The notes: generated from the sequence alone by a model not told the origin. 64,000 nt of DNA from an uncultured Alphaproteobacteria bacterium (GCA_934234055.1 CAKQGY010000002.1:74427-138426); one strand, 5' to 3'. Shown: positions 1,179 through 57,984, numbered from the stretch's first letter. A program made the numbers and translations.

Positions 1179-1245
1179 GCATTCGTGTTTGGTTGATTCT
1201 TCGGGGGCAAGTCCCCTGCCCCGCTCAGAATGAGGGGAAGAATAA
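1179..1245. repeat. Palindromic interspersed repeat, copy A (subtype 1: GCATTCGTGTT..GATTCTTCGGGG-hairpin-CTCAGAATGA plus purine-rich tail)
   Basis: Near-identical arms are shared with copies at 15016, 26298 and 27246. The internal palindrome is GGGGGCAAGTCCCCTGCCCC. Confidence 0.7.
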
Positions 1246-1287
1246 CGAGGGGTAAGGTGGTTGTGGGGCATTGGGATAAGAAAAAGA

Positions 1288-1316
1288 TTGACGGGGGGAG
1301 GATTATCTGCTATGAT
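1288..1316 (+). promoter_or_regulatory. Sigma70-like promoter (TTGACG-17-TATGAT) for the 1389 gene
   Basis: Hexamers with 17-bp spacing sit immediately downstream of repeat copy A. Confidence 0.45.
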
Positions 1317-1388
1317 ACAAAATAACACAATCTGTAATGAAAAAATGTCATTTGTTATGATGTCAAGAATATAAAAGGATTAAAAAAT

Positions 1389-2207
1389 ATGCAAAAATTA
1401 CCCGTCAGTGTCGGCATACTTTCCTATAAGGCACACAAAACAATTGATCATACTTTGACGCAATACGGCGACTTTTTAACGCATTTTGAAGAAGCAAAAG
1501 TCTTCTTTCAATGCGTGAGTGAAGCCGATCAACGCATCGCCGAAAAACACAAAATCGCTTGGCAAGGAAGGCCGGATAATATCGGCATCCAAAGCGGTAT
1601 GCGGTGGGTGGTGGAAAACCTGAACGGCGAGTATATCCTGTATATGGAAAATGATTTCCAACTGCTGTATGATGTGAAAACGGCCGTGCGGGAAATTGAA
1701 AAAGCCCTGGACTTGGTGCGCACGGGGCGCGCGGATATTGTGCGGCTGCGGTCGCGCTTTAACGCCGGAGAGCCGTTTAACGATGTTCGCAAATATACGC
1801 ACTTGTTTAAGCCGGTGGCTATACACCCGGATTTTCGCGATTTTCACAAAATTCAAAAGACGATGCCGATGTTGAAATACCTGAGGCCGGGAAAAGCCAG
1901 GCGGTTGGCGGCGCGGGCGTTGTATCTGGAAAAAGAACCGGAAAAACTGTTCCCGAAAATCATCAAAAAAGACGGCGATTTTTATTTTGTGGACTCGGCC
2001 TATCTGAATTGGACAAATAACCCGACAATCGTGCGCAAAGACTTGTTCCTGAAACTGCTGGACTATGCCGATGCACACCCGTCGCACCGAACCGTGAACG
2101 GTATGCAAGACTTGGAAAAGCCGTTGAACTGCCGGTGGTGGCAAGAACAACACTTGACAATCGCCATCGGAAACGGAATCTTTATCCACAATCGACTAGA
2201 CCGGTAA
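1389..2207 (+). CDS. Hypothetical protein (possible GT-A-fold glycosyltransferase)
   Basis: 272-aa ORF in an AT-rich context with its own promoter. It lies next to a polysaccharide deacetylase. An ENDF acidic motif is present. No confident family assignment is possible by eye. Confidence 0.45.
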   Translation: MQKLPVSVGILSYKAHKTIDHTLTQYGDFLTHFEEAKVFFQCVSEADQRIAEKHKIAWQGRPDNIGIQSGMRWVVENLNGEYILYMENDFQLLYDVKTAVREIEKALDLVRTGRADIVRLRSRFNAGEPFNDVRKYTHLFKPVAIHPDFRDFHKIQKTMPMLKYLRPGKARRLAARALYLEKEPEKLFPKIIKKDGDFYFVDSAYLNWTNNPTIVRKDLFLKLLDYADAHPSHRTVNGMQDLEKPLNCRWWQEQHLTIAIGNGIFIHNRLDR

Positions 2208-3158
2208 AAGCAAATCGTCAATCGGCGTGTCGGACTCTATGAAAATTCGATGTAGAGCATAGGTATCATCGGCGTCCGTAATATATCGGCGTTTGAGCGC
2301 GGGATCCGCCGGATTGACCAACACGGCACTGTCGTAATGAGCACGAATGATTGCGTCGCTGGCCGAATTATGGTGCCCATACGGATACGAAAAATGGGTG
2401 CAGGAGCGGTTGAGCCATTCAGTCAGCTTGGCTTGGCTGAGGAGAGCCTCGGCCAAAGGATCAGGCACGCGGTCCATATGCACATGGTGATTGGTGTGAG
2501 AGCCGATCTGGCACAAGTCATCGGCTGCCATTTCCTGTAAATCCGCCACAGAGCACGCACCGGCACGGTGATAAGCCGCAAAATCCAGGTGCGAATCGTG
2601 CAGCAAAAACGACATAATTTGATGCCCGGAAAGAAAGGGCAGAACACGTTTGATATATTTGAACCACCACCAAAGACGCTTGAAACGATGCTGTTTTTGG
2701 GGTAGCGTCAGTGGCAGCGCATTGATCTTGTCGCACAGCAACAGCAGGCCGTCCATCTCGGGCAACCGACAATTGTTAAAGCCGTTCTCTATTAAATCGG
2801 TGGCAATATAAAACACAAACGGGACATTGTGCTTTTTGAAAACCGGATAGGCATGGGTGTAGATGTTCTTCCACCCGTCATCAATCGTAATAACGATGTT
2901 TTTATGCTCTTGGTCGTCAGCTTTGTCGCGCAAAAAACGATCCAGGGATACAAAGGTATAACCCCGATCCCGCGCGGCGATAATCAACTGCTCCAATCGG
3001 GCGGGGGTGAGGTTTAGGTAATTAAACATCGGAGAAATATCCCGACGGAACGAATCGGGTTCAACACTGTGCAAACCCCAAATAATTCCTTTTTTCAACA
3101 TTATAGACCGTCCTTTCCAAAACGAAAATACTATACGCTGATTTTTTTCAAAAGACAA
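2196..3158 (-). CDS. Polysaccharide deacetylase (NodB-homology domain) family protein
   Basis: A TIDDG motif and a histidine-rich motif region are typical of the NodB/PgdA family. An alternative start at 3101 (MLKKG..) has better SD spacing. Confidence 0.65.
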   Translation of the reverse strand: MSFEKNQRIVFSFWKGRSIMLKKGIIWGLHSVEPDSFRRDISPMFNYLNLTPARLEQLIIAARDRGYTFVSLDRFLRDKADDQEHKNIVITIDDGWKNIYTHAYPVFKKHNVPFVFYIATDLIENGFNNCRLPEMDGLLLLCDKINALPLTLPQKQHRFKRLWWWFKYIKRVLPFLSGHQIMSFLLHDSHLDFAAYHRAGACSVADLQEMAADDLCQIGSHTNHHVHMDRVPDPLAEALLSQAKLTEWLNRSCTHFSYPYGHHNSASDAIIRAHYDSAVLVNPADPALKRRYITDADDTYALHRIFIESDTPIDDLLLPV

Positions 3159-3316
3159 GTGTTATTTTTCCCTTGCATTTGGAAAAAAAATAAGTAAAAT
3201 AAAACTATTCGTAAAGGAAAGTTTGATGCAAAACAGAGTGCCGACAGTTATCCCAATGGATCGGTTTTTAACCGCCGGGGCGGCTCTCCCCCAAAATCAG
3301 CTTTCACAATATAACC

Positions 3317-3352
3317 GGAACTCCCTGAAAAATCAGGGAGTTCTTTCTTTTA
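3317..3352 (+). promoter_or_regulatory. Hairpin plus U-run (intrinsic terminator-like) inside the pyrG 5' leader; candidate attenuator
   Basis: GGAACTCCCTGA-aaaat-TCAGGGAGTTCT gives a 12-bp stem, followed by TTCTTTCTTTT. It ends 26 nt before the pyrG ATG, leaving no room for a promoter downstream. Confidence 0.5.
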
Positions 3353-3377
3353 ACAATCAGCAGGAAAGTGTTTATCT

Positions 3378-13700: not shown

Positions 13701-13746
13701 GGGCGAGGTGGCCCGTGGGAGGGGGGTAATTCGGAATTATGTGCCT

Positions 13747-13793
13747 GGTGGATTGCCACGGCCTGGCGGCCTTGCAATGACGGGGGAGAGAAG
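13747..13793. repeat. Palindromic interspersed repeat, copy G (subtype 2: GGATTGCCACG-palindrome-TTGCAATGA plus GGGGGAGAGAAG tail)
   Basis: Arms are shared with copies at 29145, 40641 and 40694. It is followed by a conserved promoter-bearing tail, as is copy B. Confidence 0.7.
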
Positions 13794-13821
13794 AAAAAAA
13801 CATCAATGCGCATTTTTCTTA

Positions 13822-13850
13822 TTGCTTTTCAATTTTACTGTTGTTATACT
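13822..13850 (+). promoter_or_regulatory. Sigma70-like promoter TTGCTT-17-TATACT
   Basis: The same module (AAGAAAAAAA-CATCAAT-CGCATTTTT-TTGCTTTT..) recurs at 15071-15131. Confidence 0.5.
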
Positions 13851-13884
13851 CAAAGCGGTTTCATAAAATAGTAGGAGTCAACCA

Positions 13885-15003
13885 ATGGAGTTAAATTTAA
13901 AAAAGAATCTTTTTCGCTATGGAAAAAATGAGCCACTAACATTTGGTGTAATTGTCTCTTTAGTGCTTTTTGATATTTTAGTATGGAGCCTGATATCAAT
14001 GGGCATGATCAGCGTAGACTACCGCTTTTCTGATGAAAACAATTGTCATTCTCAGGTGTATGCTATTTTAAATCGTGATATTCCAAAATTTGAGTATTAT
14101 TCGCCAAAAACAGGAAAATACTGCGCCTTGTTTCAAAAAGAATATGATAAAGTAAGTTCTGATAAATCTGTTGTAAATGCTTTAAACGACATTTATCAAA
14201 CAGAAAAAAGAATCAATCAACTGGCAACAGAAATAGGGACGGCTCGGTATACATTAGAGGAAAATGCAACGGCTTATAACATTGCCATTCAAGAGCAAAA
14301 AGGACTTGATTTATCTTACACGGGAAAAATCAAAGAAATCCAGGAAAATGAGCAAGAACTAGAACAAGTTAAACAACATTTAATTCAACAAAAGCAAAAT
14401 TTTAAATCATTACCCGCAGTTCAACAATTAATACACTATACGCAACAAAATCAAAGCAACATATTTGCCCGGTATACCTTTATGACCAAGGTGGATTTGT
14501 TCTTAACATATGTTTTTGCTATGCTTTTTGTCGCTATTCTGATACCCGCCCTTATGCTGTTGCGCAGAAGTTTAATCCGTAAAGAAAAGTATATTCGCTT
14601 GCTTGTAGTAAATCATATCATTTTGGTTGCTTTTTTGCAGGGAATTTTTATTACGCTTCGCTTTATCTTGCATATTTTACCGGAAACTCTGCTGCGTAAC
14701 CTGATTGATTTCTTTAGATCTTTGCATCTGATGGCTCTATGGTATTATATAGCAATCGGATTATCGTTTTTACTGTTTGCAGGCGTTGTATATTTTCTGC
14801 AAACAAAAGGGCGGCGCCGGAATTTATACAAAAAATTGATCAAAGGAAAGTGCTGGAATTGTGGTGCGCGAGTACTAGATAACGATTTTTGTTTTTCCTG
14901 CGGAGAAAAGCAATTATGCGTATGCCCACATTGTCGTAAAAAAACATATATAAAAATGCCTTATTGTCGTTTTTGCGGTAAAAGCATAGCCAATGAAGAT
15001 TAG
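13885..15003 (+). CDS. Hypothetical membrane protein with coiled-coil region and C-terminal double zinc ribbon (4x CxxC)
   Basis: 372 aa in a low-GC islet. Order is N-terminal TM, Q/E-rich coiled coil, 3 TM helices, then CWNCG..CFSCG..CPHCR..CRFCG. Confidence 0.6.
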   Translation: MELNLKKNLFRYGKNEPLTFGVIVSLVLFDILVWSLISMGMISVDYRFSDENNCHSQVYAILNRDIPKFEYYSPKTGKYCALFQKEYDKVSSDKSVVNALNDIYQTEKRINQLATEIGTARYTLEENATAYNIAIQEQKGLDLSYTGKIKEIQENEQELEQVKQHLIQQKQNFKSLPAVQQLIHYTQQNQSNIFARYTFMTKVDLFLTYVFAMLFVAILIPALMLLRRSLIRKEKYIRLLVVNHIILVAFLQGIFITLRFILHILPETLLRNLIDFFRSLHLMALWYYIAIGLSFLLFAGVVYFLQTKGRRRNLYKKLIKGKCWNCGARVLDNDFCFSCGEKQLCVCPHCRKKTYIKMPYCRFCGKSIANED

Positions 15004-15015
15004 CTAGAATGTGGC

Positions 15016-15070
15016 GCATTCGTGTTCAATGGATTCTTCGGGGCACAAGGTGTGTGCCTCTCAGAATAAT
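15016..15070. repeat. Palindromic interspersed repeat, copy B (subtype 1)
   Basis: GCATTCGTGTTCAATGGATTCTTCGGGGCACAAGGTGTGTGCCTCTCAGAATAAT. Confidence 0.7.
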
Positions 15071-15102
15071 AAGAAAAAAAATCATCAATACGCATTTTTT
15101 TG

Positions 15103-15131
15103 TTGCTTTTTGATTTCGGCAACGATATAAT
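15103..15131 (+). promoter_or_regulatory. Sigma70 promoter TTGCTT-17-TATAAT
   Basis: Perfect -10 hexamer. Drives the long leader of the GT2 gene. Confidence 0.55.
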
Positions 15132-15136
15132 AGAGA

Positions 15137-15346
15137 TGCCTTCAGTGTTTGAAGGCACGGGCATAGAAAACCTGTACAAGATAGAGCCGACGCCGGCTCT
15201 TTAAATATGCTTGGCATTCGCCGTTCGGACGGATGTCGGCTAAATAAGGTTTCGGCCGAATAAGCCGAGCCGTTATCTTGTACGGTTTTCTAACATCCGC
15301 CCACTGTCAAGTGGGCTTTGTTATAGAGAAAGGGAGGCCAAAAAGC
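15137..15346 (+). promoter_or_regulatory. Structured 5' leader of about 210 nt with a long-range inverted repeat (candidate cis-regulatory RNA)
   Basis: GAAAACCTGTACAAGATAGAGCC (15166-15189) pairs with GGCTCGTTATCTTGTACGGTTTTC (15266-15290). Several internal hairpins sit between them: GCCTTCAGTGTTTGAAGGC, GAGCCGACGCCGGCTC and CCGTTCGGACGG. Confidence 0.4.
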
Positions 15347-16354
15347 ATGATAACGCCACGCACAATTTCCATCATTATAACCGCCTATAATTCCGAAAAA
15401 TATATCGGGGATTGTTTGGTGTCCTTGGCAGCACAAACGAATCCGGACTGGATGGCCCTGATCATGGACGACGGATCCAACGATAAAACCGCTGAAATAC
15501 TGAAAACTTGGGCCAAAAAAGATCCGCGAATCCACGTCTTTCAGCAGAAAAATCAAGGATCATCGGCGGCTCGTAATGCCCTGTTGGGCAAGGTGAAGAC
15601 GCCCTATGCGTGCTTTGTGGACAGCGATGATTTGTTGCACCCGCGGGCGCTTGCGGTGGCACTGGACATTATGGAATACAGCGGGGCCGATGTCGTGGAA
15701 TACGGCATTGCACGGGTGGACGAGGCTGCTAAACCCGCTGATGTGGCAACGGAACTGACACGCTTTACCGCCGAATGGGACACCCTGAACGCTCCATATG
15801 TCGCCCGCAAAAAACGGGGTGGAAATTGGATCAATGTTACAAATAAACTGTATCGTGCCGATATCGTCAAAGAAATCCGATTTGACCCGGAATTGGTGTA
15901 TGAAGATGACTTGTGGTTCAGCACCTTGGCACATAATGCGGGGCCAAAAAAAATTGTCATCGGGGTTCCTTTATACTTTTGGCGCAAAAATCCGAACTCT
16001 AAAACTCAAAAAATTGACTTTGACCGCTATGTAGGCAGTGCAATTCGGCGGGTTTTCCTGATGAATACTTACTTTGGAGTCGGGCACCGATTGAATCAAG
16101 CCTGCTGGCAGGACTATGTGCGGGACTTGGCACAAGATGCTTATCGTATGATTTTGCGCAAAAATATCCGACACAACCCCAATTCAGCCGATAAAGAACG
16201 CGTGTTTTGGCGTGCGTCGGCGGCTTTGGAACGGTTGGTGAAAGAACGAGTCTTTTATACCTCTTATTTAAGCACGCCCCAGCGGTTCGCGGTGTGGTTG
16301 TGTCGCAAAAAACACTATCGGCTGTGCCGGTGGCTGGTGGCTTTGGTGGGCTGA
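15347..16354 (+). CDS. Family 2 glycosyltransferase
   Basis: The ISIIITAYNSEKYI ... DDGSND ... VDSDD layout matches the GT-A fold. AGGGAGG SD precedes the ATG. Confidence 0.75.
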   Translation: MITPRTISIIITAYNSEKYIGDCLVSLAAQTNPDWMALIMDDGSNDKTAEILKTWAKKDPRIHVFQQKNQGSSAARNALLGKVKTPYACFVDSDDLLHPRALAVALDIMEYSGADVVEYGIARVDEAAKPADVATELTRFTAEWDTLNAPYVARKKRGGNWINVTNKLYRADIVKEIRFDPELVYEDDLWFSTLAHNAGPKKIVIGVPLYFWRKNPNSKTQKIDFDRYVGSAIRRVFLMNTYFGVGHRLNQACWQDYVRDLAQDAYRMILRKNIRHNPNSADKERVFWRASAALERLVKERVFYTSYLSTPQRFAVWLCRKKHYRLCRWLVALVG

Positions 16355-16719: not shown

Positions 16720-16735
16720 TTTGCATATATGCAAA
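16720..16735. promoter_or_regulatory. Perfect 16-bp palindrome TTTGCATATATGCAAA (putative operator)
   Basis: It lies 10 bp upstream of the -35 of the sRNA promoter. Confidence 0.4.
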
Positions 16736-16779
16736 AATAATGTATTGACAAACGCAAAAATATATGGTAGATTGCTTTT

Positions 16780-26155: not shown

Positions 26156-26297
26156 GGTTATTCTCCAAGGGAAAATTATATCACTTTTTGGGAATTTTGG
26201 CAAGAAGAAAAGAAAAACGGAGAGAGAAATGTTACATTCGTGATTTGGGCATTGCCGTGGCAACAGGGGGGGGGACAATAATAAGTTGACTCTTTGA

Positions 26298-26342
26298 TTA
26301 TGGATTCTTCGGAGCAGAATTCCCCTGTTTGCCCAGAATGAC
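26298..26342. repeat. Palindromic interspersed repeat, copy C (subtype 1)
   Basis: ATTATGGATTCTTCGGAGCAGAATTCCCCTGTTTGCCCAGAATGA. Confidence 0.65.
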
Positions 26343-26373
26343 GGCAAAGTAGAATTTGCGTGTTAAAAAAAAT

Positions 26374-26402
26374 TTGACACAAATAAATTATTGTGGTATA
26401 AT
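26374..26402 (+). promoter_or_regulatory. Sigma70 promoter TTGACA-17-TATAAT
   Basis: Consensus hexamers upstream of the 26439 gene. Confidence 0.55.
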
Positions 26403-26438
26403 AATGGTATAAAGTTTAATTTACAAGGAGGTTATACA

Positions 26439-27161
26439 ATGACTTTTAAGAAAACACTGACTGGGATTGCTTTGGCTGCGGGAGCCATGGTGGCACCGAT
26501 GACCAAAGCCGAGACAAAACCGGCGGATACACCGGCAAAAACTCAGGAAGCCGCGCAAGGTGAAAAAATCACGATGCCGGATTGGATCCCGACAACTGCC
26601 GACGGTAAGTTTGATGAGAAAAAAGCCCATGAACAAGCCGATATGCTGTGGCAAGAAAATGGCGATGCTATTCAGAAATATGCCGATGATGTGGCTGCCG
26701 GTGTGCCGGAAGAAATTGCCTTTACCAAGTTTGCTCACAATTTGGCAAAAGGTGATAAAGAACAAGAAAAACAAATCCTGTCTCTGTATGATGCCGTCAA
26801 AAAAACACGCGAGCAACGCCAAGGGAATATGACAGATGATTCGTTTTTCAAAGCGTGTAATGCAGGAGGGTTGTTTTTTGCATTTTTGGTTTTTTCTTCT
26901 TCTTTGTTAGGAGGAATGAACGATAAAAAAGTGGGGCGCTACTTGAGCATTGCTAATGTTACCGCATTGGCGGTATTCACTCTATCAAAATGGGTAAATC
27001 CAAATCAAGTTACAAAAAACACATTTGTTGACTTTCAAAAACAAATGCATCAAGCCTATACGCAACAAATAAATGGCGATAAGAACTATACGATAACCGA
27101 CATGGCAACGGCCCGGAAGATGATCCAAATGGCGCAAGGCGTCAAAGGAGCAGAAAGATAG
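26439..27161 (+). CDS. Hypothetical secreted protein (signal peptide, Lys/Glu-rich, C-terminal hydrophobic segment)
   Basis: AGGAGG SD 7 nt upstream. The N-terminus MTFKKTLTGIALAAGAMVAPMTKA has a signal-peptide-like profile. Low-GC islet. Confidence 0.55.
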   Translation: MTFKKTLTGIALAAGAMVAPMTKAETKPADTPAKTQEAAQGEKITMPDWIPTTADGKFDEKKAHEQADMLWQENGDAIQKYADDVAAGVPEEIAFTKFAHNLAKGDKEQEKQILSLYDAVKKTREQRQGNMTDDSFFKACNAGGLFFAFLVFSSSLLGGMNDKKVGRYLSIANVTALAVFTLSKWVNPNQVTKNTFVDFQKQMHQAYTQQINGDKNYTITDMATARKMIQMAQGVKGAER

Positions 27162-27245
27162 GTCGTTTGGGTGTTATGTCTGCGAAAGGCCTGCCGGTAA
27201 AAACCGGTGGGCTTTTTCTTTTTTTAGGGGGGAAAATAAAGAATT

Positions 27246-27304
27246 GGTGTTCAATGGATTCTTCGGGGGCAGGTCCCCTTGCCTCTCGCAATGACAGCGG
27301 GGGT
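27246..27304. repeat. Palindromic interspersed repeat, copy D (subtype 1). A second left-arm-less copy lies at 27357-27419
   Basis: GTTCAATGGATTCTTCGGGGGCAGGTCCCCTTGCCTCTCGCAATGA. Downstream, GGCAGGTCCTCG...CTCAGAATGATGGGAGAGAGAGGAGAATGACGGGAGGGAAG. Confidence 0.7.
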
Positions 27305-28038: not shown

Positions 28039-28062
28039 GGAAAATAAAAAAGGATTATTCAA

Positions 28063-29100: not shown

Positions 29101-29116
29101 TATCCCGAATTGGTTC

Positions 29117-38810: not shown

Positions 38811-40574
38811 GTGAATAATTCTTGTTTTTCAAGTGGTTATAATGCGTTATTAAAGTATTTTCGTATGAACTTCGGCCGGCGCTCCGGGGCGCGGGGTGCA
38901 AAGGCATGTTCCGAATCGGGTCGCAGTATGGTAGAGATGCTGGGTGTATTGGCGATTATCGGCGTGTTGACCGTCGGTGGGGTTGCCGGGTATAACTTTG
39001 CGATGACGCGGTATCGGGCCAACGAGATTATAGAAAGCGTTAAACAACGCGCCACCGTCGGTAGCGGGCAATACCTGCAAGGTATGGAAGCGATCAACTT
39101 GTCCGAGTTCCCGAACACAATCCTGGAATATGAGACCGAATGGTTTGACGAGGGCTTGAATGGTGAGAAAGACTTGTTCTCTATTGATGTGAAAGAGGTG
39201 CCGCAGGCGGTGTGTCAGGATATCTTGGATCGGAACTGGACTTGGCCGGCGGGGATTTTTGTGAACGAGCGGGCTATTCCCTGCCCCGAGGGGAACAGCA
39301 AGATGACCTTTGTGTTCGCGGGGGACTTGAACGAGCGCACCGACGCGGAGGCGTATGATCCGTGTTGGGGCAAAACCTGCTGCCGCGTAACGGACACAGA
39401 CACTTTGGCGTTTGAAGAAGGCCAAGACCTATCTAATAAAGAATGTAAGAAAACAGCCGCCAACAATTTAACTTGCTGCACCACGGCGGATACGCGGCAG
39501 TGCTATTTTGATCAGGCTTCAATTGACAGGTATGGGCCTCACCAGAACACAATTGCGGACTGCACCAATGACGGACGGCACCGGTGCGACGACAATTTGA
39601 ACTGCGGCTGCACCACGGGGTGCACGAACCCGGACAAGGTGCAGAATCCGAACACCTGTGTGTGCACTTGCCCGACGGGGGTGCCAAACGCCAATGACAA
39701 CGCGTGTGTGGAATGTCTGGCCGATACAGACTGCACCGGCGGCAAAGTATGCAATATGGCAGATAATACCTGTAAGTGTCCGGAGTCGGGCACAGCACCC
39801 ACGAACGCCTGCTATACGGCCACCGAGCACGCAGCGACGGAAGCATGTTCGGCCTATACAACTTACGAGCCCTTGACCTGCACCGAGCCCAAGACCGAAT
39901 GCGACCTTGCCAACAACGTCTGCAAATGCCCGGCGTGCACGGCTGCCGGTATGACCCAAAACGCCGATACCTGTGAATGCACCTGCCCGGGTGGAAAAGT
40001 GTTTAACTCAATAACCCGAAAATGTGTGGAGTGCGTGAATAATACGGACTGCGCCGGGGATAAAGTTTGTAACACGGCAAACAACACGTGCAAATGTCCG
40101 GCGTGCGCGGCTGCCGGTATGACACAAAATGCCGATACCTGCGAATGCAACTGTCCGACAGGTGAGCGCTTTAATAACGAAACGCAACAATGCGAAACGG
40201 ATTGTGCCACAGCAGCAATCCCGACAATACCGGCAGGTTCAGACGTTTTAGGGGTGAAAATTGATAATGGCCGAAAATATGCTGAAGGGAAATGGGTAGC
40301 TGAACTTGGCCCGTTTGAGTGCCCGTATGTGGTTAGTGGTTGTTTATGGCATACCACTAACGAAGTTGTTTATTACATAGATGATGTAGCGGTATATTCA
40401 ATGATGGCTTGTCATGTTGATGAGGGTTGTTACAGCGATACTTGTGCTGCCGCCGGAAATCGGTGCTGGTCAGCCGAGTTACCTGCGGGTAGTCAACTGC
40501 GCGTAAAGTTATGGAAAGGTAAGAAAAATTGGTATGCGCAGTTTAAAGGAAGTCTATACCTGAATAGACCATAG
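38811..40574 (+). CDS. Cysteine-rich tandem-repeat protein with type IV pilin-like N-terminal domain (in OFF frame relative to the upstream ATG at 38762)
   Basis: 587-aa ORF (GTG start). G-RSMVEMLGVLAIIGVLTVGGVAGY matches the prepilin N-methylation/TM consensus (Glu at +5, AIIG, Tyr). It then carries more than 60 Cys. The unit [DTCxCxCPxG..CVEC..TDC..KVCN..NTCKCP] recurs about 3.5 times, including a near-identical 168-bp tandem duplication at 39921 and 40089. Confidence 0.6.
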   Translation: MNNSCFSSGYNALLKYFRMNFGRRSGARGAKACSESGRSMVEMLGVLAIIGVLTVGGVAGYNFAMTRYRANEIIESVKQRATVGSGQYLQGMEAINLSEFPNTILEYETEWFDEGLNGEKDLFSIDVKEVPQAVCQDILDRNWTWPAGIFVNERAIPCPEGNSKMTFVFAGDLNERTDAEAYDPCWGKTCCRVTDTDTLAFEEGQDLSNKECKKTAANNLTCCTTADTRQCYFDQASIDRYGPHQNTIADCTNDGRHRCDDNLNCGCTTGCTNPDKVQNPNTCVCTCPTGVPNANDNACVECLADTDCTGGKVCNMADNTCKCPESGTAPTNACYTATEHAATEACSAYTTYEPLTCTEPKTECDLANNVCKCPACTAAGMTQNADTCECTCPGGKVFNSITRKCVECVNNTDCAGDKVCNTANNTCKCPACAAAGMTQNADTCECNCPTGERFNNETQQCETDCATAAIPTIPAGSDVLGVKIDNGRKYAEGKWVAELGPFECPYVVSGCLWHTTNEVVYYIDDVAVYSMMACHVDEGCYSDTCAAAGNRCWSAELPAGSQLRVKLWKGKKNWYAQFKGSLYLNRP

Positions 40575-40640
40575 GTGATTGTGAGACGGCAAGTGGTAGA
40601 ACAAGATTTTACCACTTGTGAGGTATGGTGAGGATATAAT

Positions 40641-40750
40641 GTTTTGTGGATTGCCGCGGCCTGACGGCCTCGCAATGACAGAAGGACTTCATTGCTTAAT
40701 GGATTGCCACGAGACGCAAAGCGTCTCTCGCAATGATGGGAGGGAGGAGG
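40641..40750. repeat. Two tandem subtype-2 palindromic repeat copies (F1 40641-40678, F2 40694-40750)
   Basis: GTTTTGTGGATTGCCGCGGCCTGACGGCCTCGCAATGA and GCTTAATGGATTGCCACGAGACGCAAAGCGTCTCTCGCAATGATGGGAGGGAGG. Confidence 0.7.
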
Positions 40751-40789
40751 CGTTGGCGGATCAAAGATTGCGCAGTTCGTCAGAATGGC

Positions 40790-40826
40790 AACAGATAATA
40801 AAAAAGGGAGGGGTGCAAGGCCCCTC
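40790..40826 (-). terminator. Intrinsic terminator for ssb (hairpin GGAGGGG-N7-CCCCTCC followed by a U-run on the minus strand)
   Basis: On the + strand an A-run precedes the 7-bp GC-rich stem. Confidence 0.5.
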
Positions 40827-40897
40827 CTTGGTAAAGTTAAAATCAGCGACAGGCAAGCCCCAAAAAAAACGGGCTGAGGCCTTGTGCCGGTCTGAAA

Positions 40898-45183: not shown

Positions 45184-46566
45184 TTGCAAAATGGGAAAAA
45201 CATGTGTAAAATACCCCTTAATTTTGTTATTGTAAAAGGAAATTTTGTTTTGTGCAAGGCTTTTTATTATAAAAATGTCAATTTTTCACCCGAAAGTGGG
45301 GTTTTGACCCTGAATTATGGGGTTGATGCGCGAGAGCAATTTACGGAAACTTTCACTTTTCCGGGGGCACCGTTCGCCGTGTCAGCACGCAAAAAACAGG
45401 CGTTGGATCAGATTTTCAGGCTGCTGCATATTGCAGCAGGAATCAGTTATTACAAGGCTTTTCTGCCCGAGAAAATGATTTTGAAAAATGGAGGTCTGAC
45501 GCCCGAGGAAGCGGCTTTCTTTGAACGGTTTTATGTGAATGGGCTGGGCGAATTTGCCGTGCGCAATCACCTGAACCTGCAAGGCAAGATTCACTTCCCG
45601 TGCGACAAAAAAGTGCGGCGAATCGCAATAGATTTACGACTACCGTATAATGCCCTGATTCCCATAGGGGGCGGGAAAGATTCGTGCGTGGTAACGGAGT
45701 TGATTAAAATGACGGATCTGCCGGCGATGACGGTGGCTGTGGGTGCACCGCGCCCGATTCGCGAGTGTATGGCCGTGGCGGGGCTGCCCAGTGTGGTTTT
45801 GACACGGCAGATTGACCCGCACCTGTTGGAACTGAACCAAGCGGGAAAAACTCTGAACGGGCATGTGCCGATTACGGGAATCTTGGCCTTTGTGCTGTGG
45901 GCGGCGGCGATTCTGTATGATAAAAAATATGTCGTGATGTCGTGCGAACGATCGGCAAACAGCGGCAATATGAAGCAAGGGGAGTTGGAAGTTAATCATC
46001 AATACAGTAAATCCTTGACCTTTGAACAGGATTTTTATCAAATAACACAAACTATCACACCGGATTTTCGGTATTTTTCACTGCTACGACCACTGTCGGA
46101 AGCGCATATCGCAAAATTGTTTTCCCGGCTGTGCCCGGCCTATTTCAACGTTTTTACCAGCTGTAATCGGGCCTTTCGATTAGACGAATCCAAACGATTG
46201 GATCGGTGGTGCGGGGATTGTGATAAATGTCGATTCGTGTTTTTAATTCTGGCGCCGTTTATGAATCGGGAAACTTTAATCCGGTTGGTGGGAAAGAATC
46301 CCTTGGATGATGAATCGCAAATGAATGGGTGGCGCGAATTGCTGGGGCTGGCGGGACATAAGCCCTTTGAATGCGTGGGAGAAATTGCCGAATCGCGCTG
46401 GGCTTTGGCGCAATTAGCGAATCGGACAGAATGGCAAAATGACGCCGTTGTGCGGCAGTTGTCTCCTGCGATTACAGGCTGTGAGGCAGGCTTGATTTTC
46501 ACGCCGGCAACTGCCCATTTAATTCCGGAGGAGTTATCAAATGTATTGGAACAATTTAAACGGTAA
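45184..46566 (+). CDS. PP-loop (SGGKDS-type) ATP pyrophosphatase-family protein with C-terminal CxxC; possible MurL-like partner of the adjacent MurD-like ligase
   Basis: 460 aa. The IGGGKDSC motif matches the adenine-nucleotide alpha-hydrolase PP-loop. RWCGDCDKCR lies near the C-terminus. Its 3' end overlaps the murD-like gene by 26 nt. Confidence 0.5.
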   Translation: MQNGKNMCKIPLNFVIVKGNFVLCKAFYYKNVNFSPESGVLTLNYGVDAREQFTETFTFPGAPFAVSARKKQALDQIFRLLHIAAGISYYKAFLPEKMILKNGGLTPEEAAFFERFYVNGLGEFAVRNHLNLQGKIHFPCDKKVRRIAIDLRLPYNALIPIGGGKDSCVVTELIKMTDLPAMTVAVGAPRPIRECMAVAGLPSVVLTRQIDPHLLELNQAGKTLNGHVPITGILAFVLWAAAILYDKKYVVMSCERSANSGNMKQGELEVNHQYSKSLTFEQDFYQITQTITPDFRYFSLLRPLSEAHIAKLFSRLCPAYFNVFTSCNRAFRLDESKRLDRWCGDCDKCRFVFLILAPFMNRETLIRLVGKNPLDDESQMNGWRELLGLAGHKPFECVGEIAESRWALAQLANRTEWQNDAVVRQLSPAITGCEAGLIFTPATAHLIPEELSNVLEQFKR

Positions 46567-47803
46567 GCGTATCGGCATTTGGGGTATGGGGCGCGAAGGC
46601 ATGGCGGCCAAAGCTATGCTGGAAAAGCACTGCCCGAATGCGGTTATCACAGAAATCGGAGAAGAAAATACCGAAGAAATCCTGAAATGTGACATCCTAA
46701 TCAAATCGCCGGGAATCAGCCTGTATCGACCGGAAATTCAACAAGCGGCCCAACACGGCGTTATCATCACATCCGGAACAAATCTGTTTTTGGCAAACAA
46801 AAAGCGCGGTATCCCCGTGATTGCCGTGACCGGGACAAAAGGGAAAAGCACAACAGCCAGCTTGCTGGCACATACTTTGGAAGCATTGAACAAAAAAGTA
46901 ATCTTGGGCGGAAATATCGGAAAGCCTTTGGTTGCGTTTACCGATGAAACAGCGGACTTTTTTGTGGCGGAACTGTCCAGCTATCAATGTGCAGACCTGG
47001 GGGGGCGGCCGGATATTGCCGTGCTGACAAACCTGTATCCCGAGCATCTGCAATGGCATGGATCACATGGACAATACTATGCCGACAAAATGCATATGAT
47101 ACGGCAGGCGAAACGGTGTATCCTGAACGGGACAAATCCCGAAACACAACGACAGGCAGCGGGGTTGGATCCGATCTGGTTTAACAGGCCGGACGGAATT
47201 CACATCAGCCAAAATACTTTTTATGACCAAAATCAGCCGTTGTTTTCGTGCGATTCGTTGCACTTGATCGGGGAACATAATGCCGAAAATGCCTGTGCGG
47301 TATTGGCGGTGGTAAAGCTGTTGGGGTTTGATACAAAACGGTGTGAGGCGGCATTTGCCGACTTTGAGCCCCTGCCCCACCGGTTGCAAACAATCGGCGT
47401 ACAAGACGGGATTACCTATGTGGACGATAGCATTTCAACCACGCCCGAAACGGCGATTGCGGCCCTGAAAGCACTGGATCGGGGACAGGATATAACTTTG
47501 ATCGCGGGGGGTATGGATCGCGGGCAAGATTATGGCGAATTGGTGCGCTATATCGCACAAAAACAAGACCGAATCCGGTTGGTAACCCTGCCCGATACCG
47601 GATCACGATTGGCAGCAATGGCACAATCAGCCGGAATTGAAACCAGTCTGACCTCGGATATGCCGACAGCCGTCAATATGGCTCAGCACCTGACACCCGC
47701 GGGCGGATTGATTTTATTATCGCCGGCGGCTCCGAGTTATAACCTGTATCACAACTTTGAAGAACGCGGTGATGACTTCAAAAAATGGATTCATTTTAAG
47801 TAG
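46541..47803 (+). CDS. murD: UDP-N-acetylmuramoyl-L-alanine--glutamate ligase, MurD family (located outside a dcw cluster; possibly MurD2 type)
   Basis: Mur ligase motifs (AVTGTKGKSTT, LAGGNIG, DDS..T, GGxDRGQD). The flanking genes are not mraY/ftsW. Confidence 0.75.
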   Translation: MYWNNLNGKRIGIWGMGREGMAAKAMLEKHCPNAVITEIGEENTEEILKCDILIKSPGISLYRPEIQQAAQHGVIITSGTNLFLANKKRGIPVIAVTGTKGKSTTASLLAHTLEALNKKVILGGNIGKPLVAFTDETADFFVAELSSYQCADLGGRPDIAVLTNLYPEHLQWHGSHGQYYADKMHMIRQAKRCILNGTNPETQRQAAGLDPIWFNRPDGIHISQNTFYDQNQPLFSCDSLHLIGEHNAENACAVLAVVKLLGFDTKRCEAAFADFEPLPHRLQTIGVQDGITYVDDSISTTPETAIAALKALDRGQDITLIAGGMDRGQDYGELVRYIAQKQDRIRLVTLPDTGSRLAAMAQSAGIETSLTSDMPTAVNMAQHLTPAGGLILLSPAAPSYNLYHNFEERGDDFKKWIHFK

Positions 47804-51013: not shown

Positions 51014-51102
51014 AATAAGACCTCCCTTTGTGGTTATATCCTATTATAGACCTAAAAAAAACAGAAAAGCAAGTATTTATTTAGCCACAACCTGAAATAT
51101 TA

Positions 51103-51131
51103 TTGACATTAAAAAACAGCCATGATATAAT
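51103..51131 (+). promoter_or_regulatory. Sigma70 promoter TTGACA-17-TATAAT
   Basis: Perfect consensus upstream of two small membrane-protein genes in an AT-rich islet. Confidence 0.55.
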
Positions 51132-51152
51132 CAAAAATACGAGAGGTTATAA

Positions 51153-51461
51153 ATGAAGAAAAAACAAATAAAGCCATCATCACTGGAAAACAAAACATTA
51201 TCCAATACAGTTGCATCATTTTGGATTACAATAGCTGGTTTCTTTTTATTTTTTGAAATACTGGCATTGTGTATTAGAGAAGAATCATCCGGATATTTAG
51301 GAACAGATGACAGAACAGAAGGTATTATATGGGCTTTATTATTTGCATGCCCGATAGTTTTGCTGGATTGCTCCAAAGAAGTATCCGCATTAATGAAGTA
51401 TGTATCTGTAATACCGTTATTTATAAGCTTTTTACTTGTTATAAAACTGATTTTCTTTTAA
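51153..51461 (+). CDS. Hypothetical small membrane protein (102 aa, 3 TM)
   Basis: GAGAGG SD. Low-GC islet, no homology assignable. Confidence 0.45.
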   Translation: MKKKQIKPSSLENKTLSNTVASFWITIAGFFLFFEILALCIREESSGYLGTDDRTEGIIWALLFACPIVLLDCSKEVSALMKYVSVIPLFISFLLVIKLIFF

Positions 51462-51496
51462 GAGAAAATTAAAAAAAATGCTATTGGAGGTTATAA

Positions 51497-51850
51497 ATGG
51501 ACAAGGATGAATCAACAAAACAACTCAAAATACATAGTATTGCTACATATCTTCTAATTTACCCCACAATTTGTTATTTCACGGCTGCCCTTGCCGGATT
51601 ATCTTCAAATATTAGTATAAAATTAATTATACCAATCCTATTTTTAGGGTATTCATTGGGATTGATACCCAGTATTGTTTTGTTCATAAAAGACCAAAAG
51701 AAAATCCGCCAATTCAAAAAAGATACTAATGATTCATCAATCAGTCCTATTCTTAGGTTACTTCAATTTTTGATTGGTTATTCTCTGGTTGTTTTATTTA
51801 TGTGGAATTGTATCTATATGATGTATGAGTTCATACAATCTCCAAAATAA
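51497..51850 (+). CDS. Hypothetical small membrane protein (117 aa, 3 TM)
   Basis: GGAGG SD. It shares the start context GAGGTTATAAATG with the preceding gene. Confidence 0.45.
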   Translation: MDKDESTKQLKIHSIATYLLIYPTICYFTAALAGLSSNISIKLIIPILFLGYSLGLIPSIVLFIKDQKKIRQFKKDTNDSSISPILRLLQFLIGYSLVVLFMWNCIYMMYEFIQSPK

Positions 51851-51854
51851 TTTT

Positions 51855-55395: not shown

Positions 55396-55851
55396 ATGTC
55401 TTTGTATCTGGAATGGTTGATCATCGGAGTCGTTTTGGCGATTTTGGAACTGATCGTGCCGGGAACCTATCTGATCTGGTTCGGATTCGCGGCTATCGTG
55501 ATGGGTGGAATCACCTACTTTGTGCCGGATTTAAGCGTGATGTGGCAGCTGATCTGGCTGGCGGCTTTATCGCTGGGGTTCGCAGTTATCGGCTGGAAAA
55601 TCTATGGCAAAACGATTTTTAAGGCAATTGTGCCGGAAAAATATCGGGACTTGAACAACCCGATCGCGCAATTGACGGGAAAAATCGTCCAAGTTGTAGC
55701 CGTCAAAGAAGGGAAATATCAGGTATCTGTGGGGGATACTGTGTGGACTGCAACCTCGGAAGACGATTTGAAAGTTGGTGAAAAAGCCGTTATTTCAGGT
55801 AGTTATAATAATGTTGAGTTAAAAATAAAAAAATATCTTGACAAAAAATAA
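55396..55851 (+). CDS. NfeD-like membrane protein (partner of the SPFH protein)
   Basis: Two or three TM helices plus a C-terminal OB-like soluble domain. Typical operon partner. Confidence 0.75.
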   Translation: MSLYLEWLIIGVVLAILELIVPGTYLIWFGFAAIVMGGITYFVPDLSVMWQLIWLAALSLGFAVIGWKIYGKTIFKAIVPEKYRDLNNPIAQLTGKIVQVVAVKEGKYQVSVGDTVWTATSEDDLKVGEKAVISGSYNNVELKIKKYLDKK

Positions 55852-56118
55852 AAAAAGGAGTAAAATGGGTTTCAAGAACGAGAAATGCTTGTTATGGTAA
55901 TACCCCTCATAATCTCATTTCAAAATAACCTTCATGCTTTTTCGTTCTTAACTTCTTTTAATATTAACAAGAAAACGCTCTGATTTCGTCGGGGCGTTTT
56001 TTGTATTGCACGCGTGATTGGGGCGGACGGTATTGCAAGATTATGAAGTGCCACAGGGTGGTTTGTCCCCTGCCCTGCTGTATGGTTGGCGCGGGCGGAT
56101 CCGAAAAAAATAAAAAAG

Positions 56119-56147
56119 TTGTGCAAAACGGGAAAATGTGATATAAT
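56119..56147 (+). promoter_or_regulatory. Sigma70-like promoter TTGTGC-17-TATAAT
   Basis: It follows a degenerate repeat copy (about 56020-56090, GTCCCCTGCCC core). Confidence 0.45.
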
Positions 56148-56193
56148 ATAAATAGAGTGTAAGGAATAACCACCAGAAGAAGGAGAAAATACC

Positions 56194-56835
56194 ATGCAAA
56201 CAAAAACAAAATTTTATAGCAACGGAAAGGTTAGCGAGGTTTATACCGTTGATGATAAGGGGCAGAAGAATGGGGAATTTCAATCCTATTATGATGATGG
56301 GCAATTGAATGAGAAATGGACGTATAAGGATGGTAAGAAAGATGGTCCTTATGAATTGTATTATAGCAATGGGCACTTGAGAAAAAAGTGCACGTTTAAG
56401 GATGATCAGCTAGATGGGCCGTATGAACTATATTATGGTTATGGTAACAGGCAGTTAGATACAAAGTGCACGTTTAAGGATGGTGAGTATGATGGTCTGT
56501 ATGAAGAGTATTATGTGAATGGACAGTTGAAGAAAAAGTGCACGTTTAAGGATGGTAAGGAAGATGGCCTGTCTGAAGCATATTATAATAACGGACAGTT
56601 GAAGGAAAGGTGCACGTATAAGGACGGTAAGTTAGATGGGGCGTATGAGAGGTATGAAGAAAATGGAGAACTTGTCAAAAAAGGAGCTTATGTCAATGGG
56701 AAGTTTGTGCAGGAAAAGAAAGGGCTGTTCGGGTTGAAAGCTAAATTGGCGGCGGCACAGACAAAGACGGAGCCGGCGAAACAATCTTTGATTGGCAAGT
56801 GCTTCAAGATGTTCCGGGGAAATAGCGGGCGGTAA
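56194..56835 (+). CDS. MORN-variant (MORN_2) repeat protein, YwqK-like; paralog of the 27514 gene
   Basis: 213 aa with 7-8 tandem 23-24-aa units (KCTFKDGxxDGxYEEYYxNGQLKKK). The DNA shows a periodicity of about 72 bp. Confidence 0.7.
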   Translation: MQTKTKFYSNGKVSEVYTVDDKGQKNGEFQSYYDDGQLNEKWTYKDGKKDGPYELYYSNGHLRKKCTFKDDQLDGPYELYYGYGNRQLDTKCTFKDGEYDGLYEEYYVNGQLKKKCTFKDGKEDGLSEAYYNNGQLKERCTYKDGKLDGAYERYEENGELVKKGAYVNGKFVQEKKGLFGLKAKLAAAQTKTEPAKQSLIGKCFKMFRGNSGR

Positions 56836-56860
56836 AGATCCCAAAAGTTAGGAAGAAAGG

Positions 56861-56892
56861 CACCCCCGGCCGATTGGTCGGGGTGTTTTTTA
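56861..56892 (+). terminator. Intrinsic terminator
   Basis: CACCCCG-GCCGATTGGT-CGGGGTG followed by TTTTTT. Confidence 0.6.
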
Positions 56893-57022
56893 TAAGCGGA
56901 TAACAACGGAAAGGGTAATCAGCAGGGAGGTCCTGGCGGTGTAAAAATGGTGGGAAAAACAATAAAACTTGACAAAAGAGAAGAAATCGTGTATAATGGG
57001 TTTTATATGGAGGAGCACTGCT

Positions 57023-57397
57023 ATGGCTAGAAAACAACAAGAAACAATTACAAAGATCCAAACGGATTGGGCAAACAATGATGTGATTCAAGTCCCGACA
57101 AAAACACACTCGTTGGGGGCGCTATCCAAAACCTTGGAGGAAGTGGCGGCGCTGAAAGGCGTGGATAAAATGCTGTTGGACTTTCCGCTGATCAATACGC
57201 GCGTTCTGTTCTCGGCGGAAGAATGTGCCAAAACCGACCTGGTGCGCAAAATCCTGTTCCTGAACGCGACTTTGGGTGCCATGCACAGTCAGATGATTGT
57301 CGCCAAAAAAAATGCCAAGGTGGATGATCAAACTGCCGTGCCGTTGCAAGATGTCTTGAACGCAATGCGGGACAAAGGAATCTTGTTCAATGACTGA
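57023..57397 (+). CDS. Hypothetical protein (124 aa)
   Basis: GGAGGA SD precedes the MARKQQ start. No family recognisable. Confidence 0.45.
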   Translation: MARKQQETITKIQTDWANNDVIQVPTKTHSLGALSKTLEEVAALKGVDKMLLDFPLINTRVLFSAEECAKTDLVRKILFLNATLGAMHSQMIVAKKNAKVDDQTAVPLQDVLNAMRDKGILFND

Positions 57398-57412
57398 TAA
57401 AAATAAAAGCCC

Positions 57413-57441
57413 TTGACTTTTCGGGGGCTTTTTGCTATACT
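57413..57441 (+). promoter_or_regulatory. Sigma70 promoter TTGACT-17-TATACT for rnpB
   Basis: The -35 lies within the loop of the hairpin terminating the upstream gene. The TSS is predicted near 57448. Confidence 0.5.
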
Positions 57442-57447
57442 AATGCA

Positions 57448-57817
57448 GTCAGATAATCGGATAATCGCTGGCATATTAAAGGGTCAGAGGAAAGTCCGGG
57501 CTTCACAGAAACGCGATACCGGATAACGTCCGGGCGGGGCGACCCGACGGAAAGCGTCACAGAAAACAAACCACCGCAGCATGCTGCGGAACGGATGAAA
57601 AGGCGGGGTAAAAGCCCACCGCGCCGGTGGTAACACAGGTGGCAGGACAAACCCTATCGGAAGCAAGACTAAATAACAGAACACACGCGGAACTTCCGCT
57701 GTTAAAATGAGCGTTTCTGCTCTGGTTCAAGCAGGTAAGTCGCTAGAAGCAAGTAGTAATACTTGCCCCAGATGAATGATTATCAATTACAAAACCCGGC
57801 TTATAGATTATCTGACT
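57448..57817 (+). ncRNA. rnpB: RNase P RNA, bacterial type A
   Basis: Contains AGAGGAAAGTCCGGGCT (P4 5' strand) and ACAAAACCCGGCTTATAG (P4 3' strand). The 3' portion is near-identical to E. coli (CCAGATGAATGA..ACAAAACCCGGCTTAT). The P1 stem pairs GCAGTCAGATAATC with GATTATCTGACT and is followed by a U-run. Confidence 0.9.
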
Positions 57818-57948
57818 TTTTTTTACATCTGATTGTATTCTTTTGATTTTTTTTTACAAATAAAGGTTGACTTCCGGGCAAAATGACACAATATGCCATA
57901 TGTCGGGAGATGGATTGGGGAAGCTGTCCCTGACAGAGAAAGACGGCA

Positions 57949-57984
57949 AAGCGGAAGGAGTGAGTCCTTCCGCTTTGTTTTTTT
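57949..57984 (+). terminator. Intrinsic terminator (perfect 11-bp stem AAGCGGAAGGA/TCCTTCCGCTT plus TGTTTTTTT)
   Basis: It sits just 3' of the minus-strand valS stop. It closes a short + strand unit containing a degenerate repeat copy. Confidence 0.6.

Follow-up and report, generated by a model that had tools for sequence, protein, structure and literature searches.

Bulged hairpin repeats of the CGTC-tagged type in strain-variable intergenic DNA of an uncultured gut bacterium

Hairpin units at seven intergenic sites

Here we analyse a family of small palindromic repeats in a 64,000-nucleotide stretch of DNA (GCA_934234055.1, CAKQGY010000002.1:74427-138426), referred to below as the window and numbered from its first letter. 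Eight hairpin units and one half unit lie at seven intergenic sites, among them the end of a tRNA-Phe gene, an islet with zinc-ribbon and glycosyltransferase genes, the gap beside mfd, and the downstream side of a Cys-rich gene. The units belong to two sequence classes, class 1 reading TGGATTCTTCGG...CTCAGAATGA and class 2 reading TGGATTGCCRCG...CTYGCAATGA. Copies start at 1179, 13747, 15016, 26298, 27246, 27357 (the half copy), 29145, 40641 and 40694; all are on the + strand and all are intergenic relative to the called genes. As judged from their sequences, the repeats are a bulged, array-forming variant of the superfamily of repetitive extragenic palindromes (REPs) that carry a CGTC tag, and every canonical unit of the window lies within DNA that differs among strains about 98% identical to one another.

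The individual features are given below. E values are those of matches to R1, a covariance model built from A1, an alignment of 40 class 2 elements, all of equal length, from foreign loci; it includes no sequence of the window lineage. The z values are those of the predicted folds.

1179-1236, + strand: class 1 unit with leader GCATTCGTGTTTGG, a variant TTG tail and its hairpin at 1195-1233; it starts 23 nt past the tRNA-Phe terminator and has a CCTC tag on the opposite strand
13746-13784, + strand: class 2 unit, TGGATTGCCACG-GGCC TGGC GGCC-TTGCAATGACG; R1 match, E 9e-10
13785-13862, + strand: shared tail, with its counterpart at 15070-15135, reaching a -10 box (TATACT) that precedes the zinc-ribbon (DZR) gene
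15016-15069, + strand: class 1 unit whose 3' end (CTCAGAATAA) is degenerate; z = -3.9; no match by the class 2 model R1
26298-26345, + strand: class 1 unit within the variable segment 26211-27451; R1 match, E 0.04
27246-27396, + strand: composite element, in which a class 1 5' arm is fused to a class 2 3' arm (27252-27298; R1 match at 27252, E 0.007) and, about 85 nt further on, a 3' arm of class 1 (CTCAGAATGA) stands at 27379 with a purine-rich tail after it
29145-29194, + strand: class 2 unit located where the 345-aa gene and mfd converge, its distal stem being 9 bp long; z = -3.3; R1 match at 29148, E 1.4e-10
29250-29272, + strand: solo 3' arm, CTCAGAATGG, plus purine-rich tail, at the right junction of the 28038-29257 strain replacement
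40641-40740, + strand: two class 2 units in head-to-tail order (40644-40682 and 40697-40740), with the linker CAGAAGGACTTCATTGCTTAA between them; R1 matches at 40644 and 40697, E 1.5e-10 and 4e-09

Two short patterns exceed their expectation from shuffling in the window, GGATTSYYVCGR with 4 matches against 0.65 and YTCRSAATGA with 6 against 1.7, and an R1 scan of the window gave nothing significant on the - strand. Reading of the sequence confirmed the positions and the two subtypes proposed in the initial annotation, and the gene calls confirmed that all copies are intergenic. The count of at least nine copies stands as eight units and one half, with the correction that those at 27246 and 27357 belong together in one composite element. 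This composite is homologous to a long-form element of a sister strain (87% identity over 100 nt; L132 4512-4610), in which class 1 arms surround about 110 nt (L132 4468-4612) and the whole folds with z = -3.2; no such overall fold is predicted for the window composite. The purine-rich tail, previously assigned to most copies, follows five of the nine. Degenerate remnants had also been placed at about 29120, 56055 and 57911, but these were undetected by R1 and unconvincing by eye. Just upstream of the last of them lies a bacterial class A RNase P RNA (57449-57819; 281 bits).

The units are structurally constrained. Complementary outer arms (ATTCT/AGAAT or ATTGC/GCAAT) enclose a second hairpin, and the basal stem closes the distal stem in 7 of the 8 window units (minimum free energy or centroid structure), with z of -2 or below in four; the long imperfect hairpin with inverted outer arms that had been described for these repeats is thereby borne out. 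Both the window units and the foreign elements that we recovered have a bipartite stem, in which an asymmetric internal loop separates a basal stem of 5 bp from the distal hairpin. The window hairpins measure 34-48 nt. The internal loop is conserved (CRC or TCG on the 5' side, TC or CTC on the 3' side) and is pyrimidine-rich, which makes it purine-rich on the CGTC strand. By contrast, the distal hairpin, with a stem of 4-9 bp and a loop of 2-7 nt, differs in nearly all copies, examples being GGCC-TGGC-GGCC, GAGACGC-AAA-GCGTCTC, GGGACAGAC-TG-GTCTGTCCC and CCCC-ACAAG-GGGG.

When A1 was set on the proposed structure, 87.5% of cells paired, compared with 24-46% when the partner columns were slid, both sides had changed at 6 of 10 pairs, and the covariation score lay above all 500 shuffles; the basal helix of A1 was partly selected by the detection rule, and the distal helix was not. 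Across classes the basal stem covaries as ATTGC/GCAAT, ATCGC/GCGAT, ATTCT/AGAAT and ATTAC/GTAAT. Furthermore, the 22-nt flanks are identical in foreign loci of 25-75% GC, and the GC content of the inner hairpin tracks that of the host (Spearman 0.58 and 0.60, p ~1e-14). These two observations argue that the units are long-term residents with constrained flanks and not contamination.

All units read GG-AT-T...A-AT-GA, and the same columns are invariant in the 40 foreign elements. Of the 8 full units, 7 have TGG directly before the stem, and the copy at 1179 has TTG instead. The tags, read as the reverse complement of the 3' ends, are CGTC at 13747 and 26298, TGTC at 27246, 29145 and 40641, CCTC at 1179 and CATC at 40694 and 27357; that at 15016 is degenerate. 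Where units stand head to tail in the window lineage, they are separated by a conserved linker of about 16-20 nt, roughly ACA-KAARGACYT-YATTGYTTWA.

Family identity, distribution and folding strand

On the opposite strand a unit reads CGTC(or TGTC)-AT-TGCGAG...CGYGGCA-AT-CCA. The signature of the CGTC-tagged REPs is an unpaired CGTC tag, often TGTC or CCTC, together with a CCA tail (PMC3733652). Because the CGTC/TGTC tag, the A-T and then T-A first pairs and the CCA tail of the window repeats match the published definition (PMC3733652), we assign them to this superfamily on the strength of these sequence features. Published members occur mainly in Alphaproteobacteria, have no dedicated transposase and make up families CGTC-1 to CGTC-4 (PMC3733652). 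They were reported from 5 phyla, lie mostly downstream of coding regions, have uninterrupted stems of 8-9 bp with loops of 4-5 nt, and form mostly inverted dimers, head-to-tail arrangements being negligible (PMC3733652). As the survey itself notes, bulged forms may have been missed by it (PMC3733652). Peptides in its supplement, when back-translated, share the window flanks: VIPAKAGI/DSRFRGND gives TGGATTCCCGC-N4-GCGGGAATGACG, and VIAGLDPAIH gives CGTCATTGCCGGGCTTGACCCGGCAATCCA (PMC3733652).

The units yield spurious small open reading frames (ORFs). A literature search with the peptides that the repeat would encode gave no result, and one with conserved 10-mers found primer coincidences only.

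A scan with the class 2 pattern over one genome per species, with about 5 chance matches expected (calculated from information content), found it in at least 120 genome stretches from at least 10 phyla. Among the hosts are Alpha-, Beta- and Gammaproteobacteria, Campylobacterota (among them the Helicobacter canis type strain), Desulfovibrionaceae, Gastranaerophilales, Patescibacteria, Clostridia, Bacteroidales, Fibrobacterota, Treponema and Opitutaceae. The class 1 pattern occurs on at least 120 metagenome contigs, and the class 2 pattern also on 68 contigs of the IMG/VR viral collection. R1, trained on foreign elements only, finds four class 2 units of the window at E 1e-9 to 1e-10, and its yield from 100 foreign loci (705 kb) is 275 units, which are often paired on opposite strands at a spacing of 50-60 nt. 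Both unit classes are pan-bacterial and not specific to one lineage.

It follows that part of the initial annotation has to be revised. Its view of a small palindromic repeat family of the REP or bacterial interspersed mosaic element (BIME) kind is supported, and so is the expected recurrence of the repeats beyond the window, since pattern and model searches recover them in the sister-strain flanks and in many other genomes. They are not insertion sequence ends. A likeness to Correia elements had also been suggested, but the units have neither long terminal inverted repeats nor a target-site duplication. Nor is the family "apparently undescribed": it bears the marks of CGTC-tagged REPs and is not new in kind.

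Some Betaproteobacteria and other metagenome-assembled genomes (MAGs) contain dense, regular arrays of units on alternating strands with periods of 67-135 nt (L030 540-980, L102 1-440, L096 1855-2190), some of which alternate ATTGC and ATCGC basal stems. Among the IMG/VR contigs, four (L283, L286, L295 and L310) have 3-5 class 2 units within 5-13 kb; phages or prophages can thus carry units, a possible route of spread between phyla.

At the gathering threshold Rfam matched only tRNA-Phe and RNase P in the window and none of the units, and a search up to E = 10 around 40600-40800 gave nothing meaningful. Two other identities were considered and rejected. On inspection, a k-turn or C/D-box reading of the GGAT/ATGA flanks fails because the strand order of the G.A pairs does not fit; in a CRISPR-like array reading, the "spacers" are palindromes and cas genes are absent.

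The two strands of a unit are not equivalent. On the TGGATT strand, 41 of 120 triloops are TNC, that is GNA on the CGTC strand, and none is GNA. In the most frequent foreign class (..GCG-TC-GC-TTC-GC-TCC-TCGC..), columns 16:26 and 17:25 are mismatched (T.C and C.T), and on the CGTC strand these mismatches become tandem G.A pairs beside a GC-GNA-GC mini-hairpin. Mini-hairpins of the d(GCGAAGC) type and tandem sheared G.A pairs are unusually stable. Because of this asymmetry of loops and mismatches, and of the stability of such structures, the CGTC strand is probably the one that folds. As another gauge of the folding strand, stem G.T and A.C mismatches number 3 and 9, respectively, which are few cases.

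Orientation is also uniform in the window lineage, the units being in + orientation at all 7 window sites and at 2 more in the sister-strain flanks (two-sided binomial p ~0.004, calculated); all of these sites belong to one stretch of about 75 kb. GC skew of the + strand is positive throughout the window, and none of the window's - strand genes is followed by a - oriented unit, which suggests a chromosome-strand bias rather than a transcription-linked one in this lineage.

Co-location with strain-variable DNA

Sister strains about 98% identical to the window were retrieved and then aligned to it; the host is an uncultured gut bacterium, represented by assemblies in ENA and Logan and by GCA_977942485.1. 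It is probably alphaproteobacterium-like, as its aspartyl-tRNA synthetase shares 57.6% identity with the enzyme of a Rickettsiales MAG compared with 41.7% for a betaproteobacterium, and its SufB shares 67% with the SufB of an alphaproteobacterial MAG. A Neisseria-type host was rejected, DNA uptake sequences being absent from the window.

Units are co-located with strain-variable DNA, and their arrays change between strains. Beyond the tRNA-Phe site, the units lie in three variable stretches of the window:

13713-16335, no strand assigned: strain-variable islet with zinc-ribbon/DZR and GT2 glycosyltransferase genes and the units at 13747 and 15016
26211-29257, no strand assigned: strain-variable region with the units at 26298, 27246/27357 and 29145
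38861-40897, no strand assigned: strain-variable segment with a 569-aa Cys-rich gene, whose product has a pilin-like N-terminus, and the two-unit array

At the tRNA-Phe site the window has one unit and sister strain L135 has four, arranged head to tail (class 1, 2, 2, 1), of which the outer two are duplicates. The islet 13713-16335 is absent from L132, L133 and L135, with GGTGGC at both junctions. Within the second region, L002 lacks the segment 26211-27451, in which the units at 26298 and 27246/27357 lie together with a 256-aa gene, and L126 and L127 have part of that segment replaced. In place of 28038-29257, with the 345-aa gene and the unit at 29145, strains L002, L126 and L129 have 105 bp containing a different, class 1-like unit, and the right junction of this replacement falls at the solo 3' arm, between CTCAGAATG and GCAGGAGAGAG. 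L126 also replaces 38861-40897 with a 376-aa gene and a different four-unit array. The claim that the copies mark recombination sites therefore stands as an association with strain-variable gene content; causation is not established by it. Exact look-ups of two islet proteins, one the zinc-ribbon protein of 372 aa and the other of 345 aa, returned the same genomic context only, and thus give no evidence of cassette movement.

The sequences that follow the units differ in their promoters. A sigma-70-like match of 12/12 lies at 26374-26402, 33 nt past the unit at 26298, and a 10/12 match lies 55 nt past the unit at 1179; these two promoters differ from one another and are outside the repeat unit. 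The copies at 13747 and 15016 have a tail in common, about 50 nt of nearly identical sequence that ends at a good -10 box and has a weak -35, and the promoter scan left the TTGCTT -35 and TATACT-TATAAT -10 pair unflagged in both. This tail looks like a local duplicated module of unit plus promoter within one islet. Near-consensus promoters had been proposed after several copies, and strong matches were found after 26298 and 1179 only; a promoter-bearing tail common to two copies had also been proposed, and the shared sequence is real, although its -35 boxes are weak. Delivery of promoters as a general property of the units was not upheld, given that the promoters differ, lie 33-55 nt beyond the unit, and share a tail only at 13747 and 15016.

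Intrinsic terminator-like hairpins with T-runs lie upstream of two units, those at 1179 (the tRNA-Phe terminator) and 27246 (27184-27217), and are separate from the units. In these two cases the copy thus occupies the gap between a terminator and the promoter of the next gene.

Elsewhere in the window, promoter-like blocks at 55824-55872 and 56955-57003, and a weaker one at 16731-16779, read CTTGACAAAA-N17-TAAAAT/TATAAT-GGGTTT, are 76% identical and lie upstream of small genes, which suggests duplicated promoter modules independent of the hairpin units.

Several further features of these sequences are recorded here. L132, L133 and L134 have 710 bp inserted directly after tRNA-Phe (1056-1131), with a GNAT acetyltransferase gene that runs on the opposite strand. 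At the two borders of this insertion, 15 bp of the tRNA 3' end are directly repeated (L132 7032-7742; window 1126-1140); it resembles a small islet targeted to the tRNA and has no relation to the hairpin units. The Cys-rich protein of the window belongs to a strain-variable set of paralogues of 376-607 aa, similar at the N-terminus to a type IV pilin leader (GRSMVEMLGVLAIIGVL) and encoded at window 38865-40574, L132 2537-4360, L136 19456 onward and L126 11786-12916. Each Cys-rich locus inspected has units beside it, just before the gene in L136 and after it in L126, L132 and the window; internally, the window member contains a direct repeat of 168 bp (39909-39989 and 40077-40157; 86% identical). 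A 213-aa protein (56194-56835) resembles, by eye, the 174-aa MORN-repeat protein (27514-28038); its gene has internal direct repeats of about 150 nt (56289-56658; 73-76% identical) and lies in the strain-variable islet 56116-56819, which is absent from L136 and L138. Absent from the same two strains is the islet 51087-51852, of 30-31% GC, with genes for two small predicted membrane proteins (102 and 117 aa). The contig of L125 ends at 5340, about 190 bp past the counterpart of the unit at 13747, which is consistent with repeats breaking short-read assemblies. Also, genes for a MurL-like epimerase and a MurD-like ligase are adjacent at 45184-47803 (Pfam MurL_N/MurL_epimerase_C and Mur_ligase), which points to an alternative route from L-Glu to D-Glu in peptidoglycan synthesis.

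Proposed mechanism, rival explanations and known systems

The account that we favour, with moderate confidence, is that the units are selfish hairpin repeats copied by a putative trans-acting factor, that in this lineage they form arrays of the neisserial type in harmless gaps, and that they probably serve as substrates for short-homology recombination. Under this model the units, non-coding and non-autonomous, would persist in low-harm gaps, either from terminator to promoter or between convergent genes. In single-stranded DNA, the hairpin would form on the CGTC-tagged strand, and a putative trans-acting enzyme would read the tags and the internal loop and copy the units. The identical 12-nt and 10-nt flanks of many co-oriented copies would offer short homologies, and exchange at these flanks would reshuffle arrays and swap adjoining accessory genes. 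The trans-acting enzyme presumably exists, and the units may have a causal role in recombination.

No transposase or recombinase was found among the called genes of the window (Pfam tables covering all but about 24.0-25.7 kb) or of the 10 kb upstream. The lack of a transposase in the window agrees with the conclusion, published in 2013 when the family was described, that CGTC REPs have no dedicated one (PMC3733652). The constancy of flanks and loop against distal drift, together with the strand asymmetry, defines what a trans-acting partner must recognise, and such a definition makes a search for that partner by phylogenetic profiling or biochemistry practical.

A far-reaching extension of this proposal is that the bulged hairpins are substrates of a widespread enzyme acting on single-stranded DNA hairpins, and that in this lineage the enzyme and the co-oriented arrays together constitute a hairpin-based system, with no known integrase, for the exchange of accessory cassettes. 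Recognition by the enzyme would depend on the CGTC tag, the A-T/T-A pairs, the purine-rich loop and the CCA tail, and the distal stem would play no part in it. We consider this extension improbable; if it is true, such a system would correspond in function to integrons or to the recombinase proposed for dRS3.

Several observations weigh against the favoured account. For CGTC units no enzyme is known or was found, in the window and 10 kb upstream or in the later literature, and no protein family was enriched near the 120 foreign loci listed, where ABC transporters and similar families occur and no transposase. The genome coverage is a single stretch of about 75 kb. The single orientation of the units places the CGTC strand on the leading-strand template, which is not expected to be the most exposed single-stranded DNA, and in foreign loci the orientation of units is unbiased with respect to local GC skew (26 versus 19). 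The remaining points concern where the units lie. They are inside variable segments and not at both borders; the empty site in L132, L133 and L135 is without a unit, and its junction is a 6-bp GGTGGC microhomology unrelated to the units; and the variable islets 51087-51852 and 56116-56819 have no canonical unit. The last two observations also contradict the claim of the initial annotation that copies bracket every accessory islet.

From the position of units inside segments and from the unit-free empty site it follows that the units may be passengers and not a cause. The main rival explanation accordingly takes them for inert hitchhikers, brought in from repeat-rich donors or accumulated at harmless sites, with no role in the gain and loss of islets. 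The two islets near 51 and 56 kb that vary without a unit would be as expected, and the 68 IMG/VR contigs with units make travel with mobile DNA possible. What does not suit inert passengers is that arrays change in number and content, between strains about 98% identical, at sites that are otherwise conserved, that one replacement junction falls exactly at the 3' arm of a unit, and that a chimeric class 1/class 2 unit exists at 27252-27298. We regard the passenger explanation as possible, if somewhat unlikely.

Another candidate function is a binding site for a host factor, the flanks and the loop being recognised by a housekeeping DNA-binding protein in chromosome organisation and not in mobility or recombination. 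REP/BIME elements of E. coli bind gyrase, integration host factor (IHF) and Pol I. A universal host partner would fit flanks that are conserved in at least 10 phyla without a dedicated transposase, but copy number varies widely among taxa and strains, conserved intergenic regions of the window are without units, and the published survey argues against a general function (PMC3733652). This explanation is, in our estimation, unlikely.

A role as a cis element in RNA, in which the hairpin of a transcript acts as 3'-end stabiliser, processing site or attenuator of the adjacent gene, seems very unlikely. The location of the published family mostly downstream of coding regions (PMC3733652) would suit it, as would the mostly unidirectional or convergent contexts in the window and foreign loci (in the latter, 37 convergent and 18 divergent by crude, ORF-based gene calls, as in the published survey) and the purine-rich mismatches and GNA/GNRA-type loops, which are typical of structured RNA too. 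However, intrinsic terminators lie upstream of two copies, no unit is followed by a T-run (purine-rich sequence follows instead), and at all five unidirectional sites of the window the weaker strand would be in the sense transcript. Foreign singletons beside unidirectional genes, by the same crude gene calls, showed no orientation preference (36 versus 30), and the Rfam searches described above matched no unit. Because of these findings on terminators, T-runs, sense strand, orientation and Rfam, a role at the level of DNA is more likely than a strand-specific one in RNA.

The weakest explanation, in which the hairpins are attC-like sites of an integron-type gene-cassette system that uses folded single strands, is hardly credible: the units are imperfect hairpins with a conserved basal stem, an unpaired central region and a variable terminal hairpin, as attC sites are, and alternate with single accessory genes, but their cores do not match RYYYAAC/GTTRRRY, neither an attI in the window nor an integrase in or near it accompanies them, the empty site is without a unit, and exact copies of islet proteins occur only in the same context.

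Among the structures already described, intrinsic terminators combine a GC-rich hairpin with a T-run, which no window unit has. Correia and Rickettsia palindromic elements are likewise small non-autonomous repeats, and the termini of the Rickettsia elements have CGTC tags (PMC3733652). These elements measure 100-150 bp and have long inverted ends, whereas the window units are intergenic hairpins of 34-48 nt; and the window units show neither the TA target duplication of Correia elements nor the in-frame location inside genes of the Rickettsia elements. The GTAG REP and REPIN elements of E. coli and Pseudomonas are also small extragenic palindromes with an unpaired tetranucleotide tag, often paired and believed to fold as single-stranded DNA. 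As read from the sequences, however, GTAG is seen at neither end of any window unit, and the repeat-flanked RAYT gene (a Y1 HUH transposase) that defines the GTAG system is not present in the roughly 75 kb here.

The CGTC-tagged REPs (PMC3733652) have the same tag, A-T/T-A first pairs and CCA tail as the window units, the same intergenic and mostly unidirectional or convergent contexts and the same lack of a transposase, and they are commonest in Alphaproteobacteria, to which the window host looks related. They differ in that the published stem is an uninterrupted 8-9 bp with a 4-5 nt loop, while the window units have a 5-bp basal stem, a loop and a distal stem, and in that the published elements are mostly inverted dimers, while those of the window and its sisters are co-oriented and head to tail (40641/40694, L126, L135). 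Foreign loci, unlike the window lineage, do contain opposite-strand pairs. The distribution found here spans at least 10 phyla, compared with the 5 published (PMC3733652).

The closest described parallel is that of the intergenic mosaic elements of Neisseria, in which arrays of the dRS3 hairpin (ATTCCC-N8-GGGAAT) are separated by RS sequences (PMC1797815). Such arrays are strain-variable, adjoin variable surface and pilin genes, and have been proposed to be recombinase sites or recombination substrates (PMC1797815). Neisseria elements clustered in mosaic intergenic regions were classed as CGTC-1 (PMC3733652), and by their sequence these are probably the dRS3 hairpins. Like the neisserial arrays, those described here have short linkers, vary in length and content between strains and stand next to variable pilin-related genes. 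Unlike them, they depart from the dRS3 consensus (with stems ATTCT/AGAAT and ATTGC/GCAAT and longer hairpins), have linkers of only about 16-20 nt, belong to a host that is not Neisseria and has no DNA uptake sequences, and are accompanied in the window by neither a filamentous phage nor an IS110-type recombinase. With co-oriented arrays beside variable pilin-like genes, the window lineage could show whether such hairpins promote gene exchange, as has been proposed, and never proven, for the neisserial arrays.

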